This document shows, piece after piece, positions 1-9,653 of a DNA stretch of 27,428 nt (positions within the stretch are counted from its first letter, which is position 1; each line of letters begins with the position of its first letter). A program made the translations under genes and the position numbers. Source of the DNA: a virus (lineage: Duplodnaviria > Heunggongvirae > Uroviricota > Caudoviricetes); IMG/VR virus record IMGVR_UViG_2802429253_000015; one strand, written 5' to 3'. Below the pieces are notes generated by a model that saw nothing but the letters and a program-made list of their open reading frames with translations, had not been told where the DNA came from and did no database searches.

Positions 1-677
<677 letters not shown>

Positions 678-2515: not shown

Positions 2516-2605
2516 GTGCTGGTTCTGAAATGTGCGCTGGCTATTGCGGCAGTAATGGCAATTTATTGTCTTGTTATCGTTCTTATGAATCACCTCTCTG
2601 ATTGA
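2516..2605 (+). CDS. Possible 29-aa hydrophobic peptide (VLVLKCALAIAAVMAIYCLVIVLMNHLSD), GTG start
   Basis: Shine-Dalgarno GGGAGG (2505-2510) 5 nt before GTG 2516; sequence is almost entirely one transmembrane helix. Too short for the ORF track. Confidence 0.3.
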   Translation: MLVLKCALAIAAVMAIYCLVIVLMNHLSD

Positions 2606-2815
2606 TTTTATATTGGCGAGGTGACGTGAGTTAAGTAGAATTGCTGCGGGTGCTTGAGGCTATCTGCCTCGGGCATGAACACCAACGGCAGATAGAGAAA
2701 AGCCCCAGTTAACATTACGCGTCCTGCAAGACGCTTAATATTAATCTGAGGCCATATCTATGCGACACATAGAGATTAGCCTCTTACGGACCGAAAGGTC
2801 AAGGAGAAGCAGGCT

Positions 2816-2971
2816 ATGAAGCAGCAAAAGGTGATGTTAATCGCCCTGATCGTCATCTGTTTAACCGTCATAGTGACGGCACTGGTAACGAGGAAAGACC
2901 TCTGCGAGGTACGAATCCGAACCGGCCAGACGGAGGTCGCTGTCTTCACAGCTTACGAACCTGAGGAGTAA
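2816..2971 (+). CDS. hokD: Hok/Gef-family type I toxin (51 aa), HokD/RelF-like
   Basis: Translation MKQQKVMLIALIVICLTVIVTALVTRKDLCEVRIRTGQTEVAVFTAYEPEE matches the Hok family essentially residue for residue as I recall HokD. AAGGAGAAG lies just upstream of the ATG. A 19-codon leader ORF (2760-2819) ends in ATGA overlapping the hok start. Confidence 0.85.
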   Translation: MKQQKVMLIALIVICLTVIVTALVTRKDLCEVRIRTGQTEVAVFTAYEPEE

Positions 2972-3150
2972 GAGACCAGGCGGGGGAGAAATCCCTCGCC
3001 ACCTCTGATGAGTCAGGCATCCTCAACGCACCCACACTTAACCTTACTAGCAAGTGGCTTTAATATTATTGTAACATTTTCATGCTCGCATGTGTTTTCT
3101 GTTGTTATGAATTAGGTACAGGGTTCTTATGCTTCTTTATCGCGATGAGC

Positions 3151-3173
3151 TTGCAACTGATTGTTAGTTGCTA
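3151..3173. promoter_or_regulatory. Palindrome TTGCAACT-gattgtt-AGTTGCTA upstream of hicA; candidate operator for HicB autoregulation
   Basis: Near-perfect inverted repeat (core GCAACT / AGTTGC at 3153-3171) about 30 bp upstream of the hicA start. Type II antitoxins with RHH domains usually bind palindromes in their own promoter. Confidence 0.4.
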
Positions 3174-3199
3174 TTGGTGGGGGAAGGGATATACTTTAA

Positions 3200-3448
3200 A
3201 TGAGCAAAAAAGAGAAGTTGAGGTGGCGTCTGAATCAGCTTCCAAAGGATTTTACATGGGATGAACTCGTGACGTTGCTTGGGCATTATGGTTTCGAAAT
3301 GCTTACCGGTTCAGGCTCAAGAAGGAAGTTTACCAATGCTAATGGAAGGCTTGTGGCTTTTCATTGCCCACATCCTGGCAATATTGTTAAAGGATATGTG
3401 CTTAAAGAAGTGAAAAATCTTTTGGATGAGATTGATAGTTATGAGTAA
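3200..3448 (+). CDS. hicA: HicA-family toxin (mRNA interferase), 82 aa
   Basis: Motifs ...LTGSGSRRKF... and ...VAFHCPHPGNIVKGYVLKEV... fit the HicA/YcfA pattern (G-S-H...HxP...G...K). The toxin gene precedes the antitoxin, as is characteristic of hicAB loci. Confidence 0.7.
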   Translation: MSKKEKLRWRLNQLPKDFTWDELVTLLGHYGFEMLTGSGSRRKFTNANGRLVAFHCPHPGNIVKGYVLKEVKNLLDEIDSYE

Positions 3449-3917
3449 TGTGCTGAGTTATAAAGGTTATTTTGGCAGCATTGAGGTTTCACTTGAAGAT
3501 AACATACTTCATGGGAAAATTCAGTGCGTAAACGATGTTGTAACCTACGAAGCGGAAACACTGGATGGGTTAAGGGCGGCGTTTGAAGAAGCTGTTACAG
3601 ATTATCTCGACACATGCAAGCAGTTAGGGAAATCTCCTGATAAACCAATGAGTGGTACTTTTAACATCAGAATTGGTCGCGATCTTCATAAGAAAGCGTT
3701 TTTGGCTGCAATGGCGGATAAGACGACGCTTAATGATTATGTGCGTAAAGCTATCGAAGAAAAGATTGCTGACAAAAAAGAAGTTCATTCTCATTCGGAA
3801 AGCGAAGAAACGACAGATACATTCGTTTGGGAAAAAGCATTCTCTTTTGGTTATGTCATTTCCCCTTCAGCAAGAACAAAAAAGAAAGAGGCTGGTGAGC
3901 GATGGATGCGTCACTGA
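3441..3917 (+). CDS. hicB: HicB-family antitoxin with C-terminal ribbon-helix-helix-like segment, 158 aa
   Basis: N-terminal SYKGYFGSIEVSLEDNILHGKI... is the typical HicB-like fold signature, followed by ...SGTFNIRIGRDLHKKAFLAAMADKTTLNDYVRKAIEEK (RHH-like). ATG 3441 overlaps the hicA stop (ATGAGTAA). An alternative start at 3426 is possible. Confidence 0.7.
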   Translation: MSNVLSYKGYFGSIEVSLEDNILHGKIQCVNDVVTYEAETLDGLRAAFEEAVTDYLDTCKQLGKSPDKPMSGTFNIRIGRDLHKKAFLAAMADKTTLNDYVRKAIEEKIADKKEVHSHSESEETTDTFVWEKAFSFGYVISPSARTKKKEAGERWMRH

Positions 3918-4709: not shown

Positions 4710-5759
4710 GTGAGGGTATTAGTGACTCCTGAAATTGCTCACCGCCTGGGGATTGTACTTTTCAGGCCCGGTCCTGATGCGATGCCTTTGTTTATGCAGG
4801 GGCGTGTGCTGGTGGAGCCTGAACCGAAAAGCATGCGCGGGCTGCCGTCCGGAGTTGTTCCTGCCGTTCGCCAGCCGCTGGCGGAGGATAAATCATTACT
4901 GCCATTTTTCAGCGATGAGCGGGTGATTCGTGCTGCCGGCGGCGCTGGTGCACTGTCTGACTGGCTCCTGCGTCATGTTAAATCCTGCCAGTGGCCTCAT
5001 GGTGACTACCATCACAGCGAAACCGTCATACATCGTTACGGTACCGGCGCGATGGTGTTGTGCTGGCACTGCGACAACCAACTGCGTGACCAGACCTCAG
5101 AATCACTTGAGCAACTTGCTCAACAAAACCTGACAGCATGGATGATTGACGTCATCCGTCACGCAATAAGCGGTGCGCAGGAGCGGGAATTATCGCTGGC
5201 TGAATTATCTTGGTGGGCGGTCTGCAATCAGGTGGCGGACGCACTACCGGAGGCAGTATTACGTCGCTCTCTGGGGGTACGAGAGGAAAAAATCCGCTCT
5301 GTGTACCGCGAAAGCGACATCGTACCGGGAGAACAGACAGCCACCAGCATACTGAAGCAGCGCACAAAAAATCTTGCGCCGTTGCCTCACGTCCACCAGC
5401 AACAAATCCCGCCACAGGAAAAGACGGTGGTCAGCATTGCCGTTGATCCAGAGTCTCCGGAATCTTTCATGAAGCTGCCTAAACGTCGCCGCTGGGTTAA
5501 GGAGAAATACACACGTTGGGTTAAGACACAGCCGTGTGCTTGCTGCGGTATGCCAGCCGACGATCCGCATCATCTGATTGGTCACGGTCAGGGTGGAATG
5601 GGTACAAAAGCGCATGACCTCTTTGTGTTGCCTTTGTGCAGAAAGCATCACGACGAGCTGCATGCGGATACCGTGGCATTTGAAAAGAAGTATGGCTCCC
5701 AGCTGGAGCTGATATTTCGTTTTATCGATCGTGCGCTGGCAATTGGCGTATTGGCGTAA
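4710..5759 (+). CDS. ydfU: YdfU-like DUF968 prophage protein (349 aa), GTG start
   Basis: GGAGG 4 nt upstream of GTG 4710. C-terminal cysteine/histidine cluster ...CACCGMPADDPHHLIGHGQGGMGTKAHDLFVLPLCRKHHDELH... typical of the YdfU/DUF968 family found just upstream of Q in Qin-like prophages. Confidence 0.75.
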   Translation: MRVLVTPEIAHRLGIVLFRPGPDAMPLFMQGRVLVEPEPKSMRGLPSGVVPAVRQPLAEDKSLLPFFSDERVIRAAGGAGALSDWLLRHVKSCQWPHGDYHHSETVIHRYGTGAMVLCWHCDNQLRDQTSESLEQLAQQNLTAWMIDVIRHAISGAQERELSLAELSWWAVCNQVADALPEAVLRRSLGVREEKIRSVYRESDIVPGEQTATSILKQRTKNLAPLPHVHQQQIPPQEKTVVSIAVDPESPESFMKLPKRRRWVKEKYTRWVKTQPCACCGMPADDPHHLIGHGQGGMGTKAHDLFVLPLCRKHHDELHADTVAFEKKYGSQLELIFRFIDRALAIGVLA

Positions 5760-5772
5760 GTGGAGAACGAGC

Positions 5773-6525
5773 ATGAACCTTGAAGCCTTACCAAAATATT
5801 ACTCCCCAAAATCGCCAAAATTGAGCGATGACGCACCGGCGACAGGCTCAGGTGGTTTAACGATTACGGATGTGATGGCTGCGCAGGGGATGGTGCAGTC
5901 GAAAGCACCGCTTGGGTTTGCCTTATTCCTGGCAAAAGTTGGTGTTCAGGATCCTCAGTTTGCTATTGAAGGCCTGCTCAATTACGCGATGGCACTGGGT
6001 AACCCGACATTGAACAAATTGAGTGAAGAAACACGGCTGCAGATTATTCCTTATCTCGTGAATTTTGCCTTTGCTGATTATTCTAGGTCTGCGGCAAGTA
6101 AGGCTCGCTGTGAACATTGTGCAGGTACGGGATTTCATAATGTATTGCGCGAAGTGGTGAAACACTACAGAAGTGGGGAATCTGTTATCAAGGAAGAATG
6201 GGGGAAGGAACTATGTCAGCATTGCCATGGTAAGGGCGAAGTCAGCACAGCGTGCAGAGGGTGTAAGGGTAAAGGTATTGTCCTGGATGAAAAAAGAACC
6301 CGGCTTCATGGCGTACCGGTTTATAAGTTTTGTGGGCGTTGTAATGGAAACAGGTTTAGTCGTTTACCGACCACACTGGCACGACGTCATGTCCAGAAGT
6401 TGGTACCGGACCTGACAGATTATCAGTGGTACAAGGGGTATGCGGACGTCATTGATAAACTGGTAACAAAGTGCTGGCAGGAAGAAGCGTATGCAGAAGC
6501 ACAACAGAGAAAAGTGACAAGATAA
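5773..6525 (+). CDS. Q: Late-gene antiterminator Q (phage 82/Qin QuuQ type), 250 aa
   Basis: N-terminus MNLEALPKYYSPKSPKLSDD... and zinc-binding cluster CEHCAGTGFH...CQHCHGKGEVSTACRGCKGKG... match the 82-type Q antiterminator. Sits immediately upstream of the moron and lysis region. Confidence 0.85.
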   Translation: MNLEALPKYYSPKSPKLSDDAPATGSGGLTITDVMAAQGMVQSKAPLGFALFLAKVGVQDPQFAIEGLLNYAMALGNPTLNKLSEETRLQIIPYLVNFAFADYSRSAASKARCEHCAGTGFHNVLREVVKHYRSGESVIKEEWGKELCQHCHGKGEVSTACRGCKGKGIVLDEKRTRLHGVPVYKFCGRCNGNRFSRLPTTLARRHVQKLVPDLTDYQWYKGYADVIDKLVTKCWQEEAYAEAQQRKVTR

Positions 6526-8856: not shown

Positions 8857-9156
8857 AAAAATTCCTTAATACTGATAACTTGGCGCACTATACACACGTT
8901 CCTGAAGAAAGCTATAGTTTTTTGATGGGGTTGAAGATGGCTGGATGTCTAAAATAAACATTGCTTCATATGTTCAACTATGAGTTAATGATTGCGTCGG
9001 TTTGAAGAACAGACGATATACGAAGTAGTTTACTAAAGCAGTTCTCATTTCAGGTGTTATTCACTTATTCCTTCTTTGAGTCTCTCCAATTAAGTACGAA
9101 GTCGTTTCTGTTATACAAACCATTTATGCCGAAAGGCTCAAGTTAAGGAATGTAGA

Positions 9157-9372
9157 ATGTCAAATAAAATGACTGGTTTAGTAAAATGGTTTAACGCTGA
9201 TAAAGGTTTTGGCTTTATTTCTCCTGTTGATGGTAGTAAAGATGTGTTTGTGCATTTTTCTGCGATTCAGAATGATAATTATCGAACCTTATTTGAAGGT
9301 CAAAAGGTTACCTTCTCTGTAGAGAGTGGTGCTAAAGGTCCTGCAGCAGCAAATGTCATCATTAATGATTAA
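9157..9372 (+). CDS. cspB: CspA-family cold-shock protein paralog, CspB/CspI-like (71 aa)
   Basis: Translation [38 protein letters not shown]... carries the canonical RNP1/RNP2 motifs (KGFGFI, VFVHF). Divergent from the cspF-like gene across a ~300-bp intergenic region, as in Qin. Confidence 0.85.
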
Positions 9373-9653
9373 AATTCATAGTTTGTCTGTATACGATAAC
9401 GAAGAAGGCTGATGCCTGAGTGGAGATACAGACAGAGTGGCGAATATTGGATCTCTTTAATAAAGAGTAAGGAGGTCCAATACATGAAACAATGGCCAGC
9501 ATATTTGGTAATAACTTAATCAGGAAAAGTATGCTAACCATTGTGGTGAAGTGCAGGTTTGCTGCATGAATAGTTTTACAGCAGAAGCTAACTGCTGGCA
9601 TAGCAAAACAAAGTGCGTAAGTGGATGACTCTCACAAAAAGCACCACAATATT

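Follow-up and report, generated by a model that had tools for sequence, protein, structure and literature searches.

A stretch of 27,428 nucleotides of Caudoviricetes DNA from IMG/VR (record IMGVR_UViG_2802429253_000015; hereafter the window), which is a lambdoid prophage, very probably carries at 2613-3043 a complete type I toxin–antitoxin cassette of the hok/sok type (hokD/hokW-sokW), placed in the prophage nin region. The cassette is ordinary and already known in public genomes, either as hokD or as hokW-sokW. A 461-bp region spanning it (2600-3060) was matched in 4726 of 5426 complete Escherichia coli genomes, with a median of 2 and a maximum of 10 copies per genome, and in 79 phage records; the best E. 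coli genome matches were 96–98% identical and annotated as hokD. Its subfamily was assigned from an identity of 92.7–97.7% over 96% of the query to E. coli genomes and phages, together with the nin/Q location. The result labels a small toxin gene that had been missed by a 60-aa open reading frame (ORF) filter, and indicates that this prophage holds a full hok/sok cassette, not the truncated hokD form of K-12. The elements assigned within the cassette are as follows.

2613-2641, + strand: putative hok mRNA promoter from a promoter scan, with -35 TTGGCG (2613-2618), a 17-nt spacer and -10 TAGAAT (2636-2641)
2648-3033, + strand: full-length hok mRNA core, its 5' end placed by homology and its 3' boundary set at the end of fbi
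2648-2659, + strand: tac (translational activator), GGGTGCTTGAGG, pairing in predicted folds with fbi (full-length RNA) or with ucb (3'-trimmed RNA)
2660-2695, + strand: inner 9-bp helix of the tac stem-loop, found in MFE folds and lying within the Rfam consensus structure
2698-2766, - strand: predicted Sok-type antisense RNA of 69 nt, positional homologue of the annotated 71-nt sokW of phage 933W
2700-2708, + strand: ucb (upstream complementary box, anti-SD), AAGCCCCAG, pairing in MFE folds with the mok Shine-Dalgarno (SD) sequence (closed form) or with tac (open form)
2748-2751, + strand: mok SD, GAGG, 8 nt 5' of the mok ATG and invariant in 61 of 61 aligned copies
2760-2819, + strand: mok-equivalent leader ORF of 19 codons, starting at -56 from hok, ending in a TGA that shares ATGA with the hok start codon
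2773-2802, - strand: candidate Sok promoter, with -35 TTGACC (2802-2797), an 18-nt spacer and -10 TAATCT (2778-2773), from the minus-strand reading and sokW homology
2779-2783, + strand: dcb (downstream complementary box), GCCTC, pairing with the mok SD in the predicted 3'-trimmed RNA
2801-2806, + strand: hok SD, AAGGAG, lying within the leader ORF, read from the sequence and kept in all copies including K-12 hokD
2816-2971, + strand: hok toxin gene, 51 aa, from a Pfam HOK_GEF match and an exact peptide match in NCBI
2954-2957, + strand: TACG motif at Tyr47, putative TadA A-to-I site (Tyr to Cys), as in hokD-type mRNAs
2979-3000, + strand: stable 3' stem-loop (-18.8 kcal/mol, z = -3.8), at which the active, processed mRNA is presumed to end
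3021-3033, + strand: fbi (fold-back inhibition), CCTCAACGCACCC, pairing with nt 1-12 through 12 bp and a single bulge (-21.1 kcal/mol)

The toxin ORF at 2816-2971 (+) translates as MKQQKVMLIALIVICLTVIVTALVTRKDLCEVRIRTGQTEVAVFTAYEPEE. This peptide matched Pfam HOK_GEF (PF01848) with E = 2.7e-23 over profile positions 2-42 of 42, and the NCBI entry with exactly the same peptide is named “type I toxin-antitoxin system toxin HokD [Escherichia]”. Hok/Gef proteins are membrane peptides of ~50 aa with an N-terminal transmembrane helix and a conserved RKxLCE motif, and by these two matches the product belongs among them. A preliminary description of the same DNA had proposed this 51-codon Hok/Gef ORF, which translation and the Pfam match bore out. 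It had also called the gene unannotated, a label that reflects only the 60-aa cut-off of the ORF list; RefSeq routinely annotates it as hokD. A disrupted hok frame was ruled out: the ORF is intact, and its product differs from K-12 HokD by a single change, A6V. The editing site listed above was assigned by analogy with K-12 hokD mRNA, where TadA editing is reported at the Tyr47 codon (PMC5630033, PMC12214031). NCBIfam, which holds only generic Hok and HokA models, gave matches under the cut-offs and was of no use for naming the subfamily.

Next to the toxin gene, the non-coding parts of the cassette match what is expected of a hok mRNA. Both 933W and E. coli ChlosBP-23-1 share the -10 box of the putative hok promoter and the sequence downstream of it, and the promoter-like site ends 7 nt 5' of position 1 of Rfam model RF01794 (window 2648). 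This model, which is named “sok” yet describes the hok leader on the sense strand as far as the AUG, matched 2648-2818 over all of its length (positions 1-157 of 157) with 103.3 bits (gathering score 59) and E = 1.1e-22. The 386-nt RNA 2648-3033 folded at -158.9 kcal/mol, with z = -7.8 against dinucleotide shuffles. In RNAfold predictions for this RNA, nt 1-12 (GGGUGCUUGAGG, tac) paired with nt 374-386 (CCUCAACGCACCC, fbi, 3021-3033) in both the MFE and the centroid fold, and the mok SD region (2746-2752; nt 99-105) paired with ucb GCCCCAG (2702-2708; nt 55-61). When the RNA was cut after the 3' stem-loop, its 5' end (nt 1-8) paired instead with AAGCCCC (2700-2706; nt 53-59), and the mok SD (nt 101-105) with dcb GCCUC (2779-2783; nt 132-136). 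In this way, the predicted MFE folds reproduce the published two-state model of hok mRNA (PMC9841398). Loss of tac or fbi, both of which were found, was ruled out. For the tac/fbi duplex we used a 12-nt 5' probe; duplex folding of long segments over-extended and was uninformative.

The preliminary description had also reported a 9-bp stem with an 18-nt loop upstream of the toxin gene. The two arms, CTATCTGCC (2660-2668) and GGCAGATAG (2687-2695), are present in the sequence and were recovered in the MFE folds, but the structure is not an additional element: within the conserved tac stem-loop it makes up the inner helix, in which one compensatory pair, A-U to G-C, was seen in 4 sequences. At the other end of the RNA, the stem-loop at 2979-3000 is analogous to the 3' stem-loop of R1 (PMC9841398), and its pairs vary among G-U, A-U and G-C across the aligned copies.

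We evaluated the conservation of these structures in an alignment of 61 prophage copies, all distinct, drawn from IMG/VR loci, 933W and one E. coli chromosome, with a mean identity of 97%. Standard pairs occupied 97% of the full-length-structure cells, and double changes were found at five pairs, where 1.9 were expected from shuffles, with compensatory changes in the tac, Sok-hairpin and mok helices. The hok coding sequence was near-invariant, with a mean column entropy of 0.02 bit. Since tac and fbi were invariant among these close copies, and the copies 97% identical, the power of covariation within the clade is low, and the comparison was extended to more distant loci from other genera. There, tac/fbi reads GGGUGC/GCACCC in Escherichia and Kluyvera, GGGCGC/GCGCCC in Photorhabdus and Pantoea, and GGCGC/GCGCC in an R1-like plasmid locus (L084), and the end pairs likewise change together (GAGG/CCUC, GAGA/UCUC or GAAG/CUUC). 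These sequence comparisons support selection on the end-pairing of tac and fbi, a pattern to which the window conforms.

On the minus strand, the predicted Sok RNA consists of a 13-nt 5' tail, a long hairpin ending GGGGCUUUU, and a U tail, with a predicted fold of -30.3 kcal/mol (z = -5.7). The 5' tail complements the mok SD and start codon. Reading along the minus strand, the -10 box of the candidate Sok promoter is followed by 6 nt and then by the G at 2766, an arrangement that aligns with TTGCCT-17-TAACCT and with the 5' end annotated for the 933W sokW; in the sokW system, mutation of the promoter abolishes antitoxin activity (PMC8621323). The candidate Sok promoter of the window went undetected in a generic sigma-70 scan, because its -10 fits only 3 of 6 consensus positions. 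The candidate for an antisense promoter of the kind that the preliminary description had suggested looking for is this sokW-like TTGACC-18-TAATCT, which is followed by the predicted hairpin. By homology with sokW, we infer that the window copy makes an active Sok.

The leader ORF comprises an ATG and 18 further codons (MRHIEISLLRTERSRRSRL) and is present, with its ATGA overlap, as first described. By sequence, it has the features of mok: an SD of its own, which corresponds to the GAGG mok SD of R1 (PMC9841398), a start ~19 codons upstream of hok, and a frame that spans the hok SD. The preliminary description had taken the shortness of this ORF, which merely abuts hok, as a sign that regulation may differ. 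This is unsupported, since mok starts at -56, -57 or -58 in relatives and since tac, fbi, ucb, dcb, the 3' stem-loop, a candidate Sok promoter and a predicted Sok hairpin are all in place. The leader is instead the positional homologue of mok, with SD and start as in mokW of 933W. Compared with the 933W leader, the loop following the mok ATG is 2 nt shorter and there is an extra T at 2799, a net difference of -1 nt; hence mokW, starting at -57, is in frame with hokW (70 aa), whereas the window start at -56 gives 19 codons up to the ATGA stop.

We compared mok frames across 80 IMG/VR loci together with the window, 933W and E. coli ChlosBP-23-1. In this set, mok lay at -57, in frame, in 61 copies, and at -56 in 12 loci, namely the window, ChlosBP-23-1 and 10 IMG/VR prophages. 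Six copies missed by the mok search pattern were in frame when read by eye, and the whole leader was absent from 3 copies, of which two have the relE flank of K-12. In distant loci, the mok start was always at -56, -57 or -58. A start at -57 is in frame, one at -58 opens an overlapping frame of 55–69 codons, and one at -56 gives 19 codons; the last form is seen again in E. ruysiae and E. whittamii, at loci of the hokC type. As hok begins with ATGAAR, any -56 mok frame must stop at ATGA. In R1, mutagenesis showed that mok has to be translated as far as the region where hok initiates, and that stop codons past the hok start are without effect (PMC9841398). Given the recurrence of the -56 form, the ATGAAR constraint and the R1 mutagenesis, the short leader is a normal variant of mok.

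One of the other readings considered is that the short mok changes regulation qualitatively, by strict termination–reinitiation in place of ribosome-mediated unfolding, so that Hok level or Sok dependence would differ from that of the -57 and -58 copies. We regard this as unlikely. It could draw on the frame shift of net -1 nt relative to mokW, on the confinement of the allele to only 12 leader-keeping loci of the sampled set, and on the fact that the same 1-nt difference turns the Sok -35 from TTGCCT into TTGACC and lengthens the spacer from 17 to 18 nt. However, the positions of the mok SD and start are unchanged and translation would still span the hok SD; the -56 form has recurred independently in the hokC-type loci of two Escherichia species and is therefore tolerated; and its stop at ATGA is obligatory from the way hok begins.

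A mechanism can be proposed for the complete cassette by homology with R1 hok/sok and Sp5 hokW-sokW. An mRNA of ~390 nt would start near 2648 and would at first be shut by pairing of tac (2648-2659) with fbi (3021-3033), a closed form in which ucb (2702-2708) would mask the mok SD (2748-2751). Slow 3' trimming to the stem-loop at 2979-3000 would release tac, and the freed tac would bind ucb and open the mok ribosome-binding site. Ribosomes translating mok (2760-2819) would then cross the hok SD and end on the UGA of AUGA, leading to translation of hok (2816-2971), and the 51-aa Hok peptide would enter the inner membrane and depolarise it. Meanwhile, a constitutive and unstable 69-nt Sok RNA (2766 to 2698, minus strand) would pair over the mok SD and start, blocking mok and hence hok, with RNase III cleavage to follow. 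Hok would be made only upon Sok decay, for instance on prophage induction or loss. It is by analogy with these systems that we infer transcription, processing, toxicity and a biological role for the window copy. In Sp5, HokW is toxic and is neutralised by sokW RNA, partly via RNase III and Hfq; HokW is made on prophage induction, and deletion of the locus halved phage release (PMC8621323). The window cassette probably has a similar role, either faster host lysis on induction or stabilisation of the prophage.

The closest of the known systems compared is hokW-sokW of the Stx2 phage 933W / Sakai Sp5, whose DNA is 92.7% identical over window 2628-3048 and whose homologous region is annotated mokW, hokW and sokW. 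The two have in common the promoter -10, tac, ucb, the positions of the mok SD and ATG, the hok SD, the 3' stem-loop, fbi, the position and predicted hairpin of Sok, and a lambdoid prophage setting, and 933W, like the window, is without the CCCGCTTCGGCGGG terminator. They differ in the toxin C-terminus (…VFVDYESEK in HokW, …VFTAYEPEE in the window) and at residue 6 (A in HokW, V in the window), in the mok frame as above, in the Sok promoter (TTGCCT-17-TAACCT against TTGACC-18-TAATCT), and in the Sok 5' tail with its target segment, where the window is unlike 933W. In the 933W record, the cassette also lies near the end of the linear genome, while that of the window precedes a DUF968–Q block.

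More distant systems share the layout. R1 hok/mok/sok (parB) has the same architecture and spacing: in the R1-like L084, the hok ATG falls at +169 and the end of fbi at +391, against +169 and +386 in the window. Both have tac/fbi and ucb/dcb, 19 codons of mok ahead of hok, a 3' stem-loop and, inside mok, a Sok promoter, which in the window is a candidate. R1 Hok is 44% identical to HokW, the close relative of the window peptide (PMC8621323), the R1 tac/fbi pair is GGCGC/GCGCC where the window has GGGUGC/GCACCC, and the R1 mok runs for 70 codons, overlapping hok, where that of the window has 19. R1 is also plasmid-borne, with post-segregational killing demonstrated. Chromosomal loci of the hokC (gef)/sokC type belong to the Hok/Gef family as well and have the leader layout of the window; those of E. 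ruysiae (L096) and E. whittamii (L097) have a 19-codon mok ending in ATGA, as in the window. Their peptides are ~78–80% identical to that of the window, their leader is shorter (5' end at about -149), and they lie in the core chromosome, in contrast to the prophage setting of the window.

The comparison with hokD (relF) of the K-12 Qin prophage bears on the history of the locus. Besides a peptide that is the same but for A6V and the same TACG editing site, K-12 hokD has DNA near-identical to the window from the hok SD to ~3043, beyond fbi, the alignment opening with AGGAGAAGCAGGCTATG at 2802, and is syntenic, with ydfU (DUF968) and the Q homologue ydfT downstream of it. Missing from K-12 are the promoter, tac, ucb, mok and sok, elements that the window sequence contains, sok as a predicted RNA; they are absent because relBE abuts the hok SD. 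Downstream, K-12 hokD keeps the terminator and rem, whereas the window has hicAB. K-12 hokD is regarded as inactivated by rearrangement (PMC12214031). Taking K-12 as the reference, the preliminary description had considered the window locus remodelled; the direction is the reverse, K-12 being truncated and the window complete, with only the 3' flank of the window differing from the majority. A loss of relBE from the window locus was ruled out, K-12 representing the derived state. Copies of relBE-hokD with V6 do exist (L143). In alignment with hokD/relF and hok loci, a comparison that the preliminary description had proposed, the window keeps an intact hok frame along with mok, tac and fbi.

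Around the cassette, the window contains the following features, in order.

1-654: IS3-family transposase fragment
between this fragment and hok/sok: DUF4014 and DUF551 genes
3044-3199, + strand: divergent 3' flank leading into hicA, the usual terminator CCCGCTTCGGCGGGTTTT absent; homology ends at 3046
3200-3448: hicA
3426-3917: hicB
4710-5759: DUF968 gene
5731-6525: Q antiterminator
8996-9388: cspA-type 5' UTR, followed by lysis genes and further large ORFs

The slot occupied by hok, between DUF551-like genes and DUF968–Q, is the same as that of Qin hokD and of other prophages with an identical peptide. In most copies, CCCGCTTCGGCGGGTTTT follows nine bases after fbi. In the window, a scan of the plus strand over 2972-3200 found no terminator-like site, and only a weak 5-bp hairpin of -3.3 kcal/mol was predicted. 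As the usual terminator after fbi is missing, the timing of fbi removal is uncertain. By analogy, the terminator is not essential, since 933W has no canonical one and hokW-sokW of Sp5, to which it is near-identical, is functional (PMC8621323).

The replaced terminator could also mean that hok mRNA reads through into hicAB, so that a type I and a type II module are co-transcribed and functionally coupled. Beyond the scan just described, this improbable reading could appeal to the hok-hicA junction, which is kept at 99% identity in L068, there with a different mok/Sok allele, and is present in 11 complete E. coli genomes. Against it, hicA has a promoter-like site of its own (TTGCTA-16-TATACT, 3168-3195), the adjacency is rare (11 of 5426 complete genomes), and in other prophages the slot 3' of hok is occupied by unrelated cargo (Rem, Fic or hypothetical genes), which points to simple mosaicism.

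Very unlikely is that the cassette is a decayed relic whose toxin is unexpressed or non-toxic, as suggested for most K-12 chromosomal hok loci: hokA, hokC, hokD and hokE of K-12 are considered inactivated (PMC12214031, PMC5630033), earlier trials of chromosomal hok loci gave no post-segregational killing (cited in 10.1101/2025.08.07.668861), and the window lacks the terminator and has a weak Sok -10, but the K-12 copies were inactivated by IS elements or upstream loss, whereas the window cassette has no IS and all elements intact in sequence, its hok coding sequence is near-invariant across the 61 copies, and 933W/Sp5 functions without a canonical terminator (PMC8621323).

Within the complete cassette, one short segment stands apart in its diversity. 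Positions 2753-2772, which cover the spacer between the mok SD and ATG, the mok start and the first codons, and at which the Sok 5' tail is directed, vary more than any other part of the transcription unit. Mean column entropy there is 0.76 bit, as against 0.02 bit in the hok coding sequence, and 18 distinct versions were found among 93 loci while the rest of the RNA is 97% identical. Copies residing together in E. coli ECMA0423 and in S. flexneri SFBU1023 all differ from one another at 2753-2772. We tentatively suggest, from these sequence patterns, that the segment may hold specificity alleles under diversifying selection, so that each of the several hokD-type cassettes in one genome would be silenced only by its own Sok, with recombination shuffling alleles between prophages, a reading we consider somewhat less likely than not. 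If true, the mok frame (-56, -57 or -58), including the 19-codon ATGA form, would be a free by-product of Sok-target diversification. For toxin–antitoxin specialists, a point of interest may be a mok whose frame is free and whose start position is fixed, next to a Sok 5' tail target that is the most variable part of the unit.

Sequence diversity in the hok RNA is concentrated in a hot spot at the start of mok, the leader ORF of hok, with the rest of the RNA 97% identical in alignment A3.

2753-2772 (alignment A3 columns about 106-131): diversity hot spot

This segment spans the spacer between the mok SD and ATG, the mok start and the first mok codons, and as a whole it is the predicted target of the 5′ tail of the antisense RNA Sok. 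Overall, 18 distinct versions of the segment were found among 93 loci, and in two genomes with co-resident hok copies it was different in every copy. Variation at 2753-2772 may represent Sok/hok specificity alleles. When the window (mok start at 2760) was compared to loci L084-L130, the position of the mok start was constant, i.e., -56, -57 or -58 relative to the hok ATG, and the mok frame varied freely, being in frame, long and overlapping, or 19 codons long with an ATGA end. Two hokC-type loci, L096 of E. ruysiae and L097 of E. whittamii, show an independent recurrence of the ATGA form.

Several independent copies (L037, L041, L082, L088, L110, L126, and L143) lack the whole hok leader and share one breakpoint directly 5′ of AGGAGAAGCAGG (the hok SD), corresponding to window position 2802. 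The breakpoint looks like a recurrent recombination joint. Most leader-less copies are flanked by relBE, and L082 has a different flank.

Two further features lie within hok and just 5′ of its promoter.

2954-2957: TACG motif at the Hok Tyr47 codon
2450-2605 (+): 51-codon ORF with a hydrophobic product (…VIVLVLKCALAIAAVMAIYCLVIVLMNHLSD)

In K-12 hokD, this TACG is a reported TadA A-to-I editing site, changing Tyr to Cys (PMC5630033). The 51-codon ORF, for which no Pfam or NCBIfam match was obtained, may either specify a small membrane protein or have arisen by chance.

While most hok copies are followed by a terminator and then by rem or other cargo, this slot (3044-3917) is occupied in the window by a second module.

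3200-3448 and 3426-3917: HicA/HicB type II toxin-antitoxin pair, directly 3′ of hok

Since HicA/HicB directly follows hok in the usual terminator position, two toxin-antitoxin modules are adjacent without a terminator between them. L068 has the same junction, as do 11 of 5426 complete E. coli genomes.

Outside this region, three features were detected.

1-654 (+): IS3-family transposase, C-terminal part (NCBIfam transpos_IS3, E = 1.3e-73)
5731-6525 (+): Q antiterminator homologue including a CXXCXGXG zinc-finger segment of the DnaJ type (Pfam matches Antiterm and DnaJ_CXXCXGXG)
8996-9388 (+): cspA thermoregulator (Rfam, 155 bits vs gathering score 78)

The transposase ORF continues beyond the left end of the window, and an IS element is inserted within the prophage's early region or adjacent to it. 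K-12 YdfT carries the same type of zinc-finger segment as the Q homologue. The Rfam match points to a prophage-borne cold-shock protein gene 3′ of Q, as in Qin, where such a gene lies downstream of Q.
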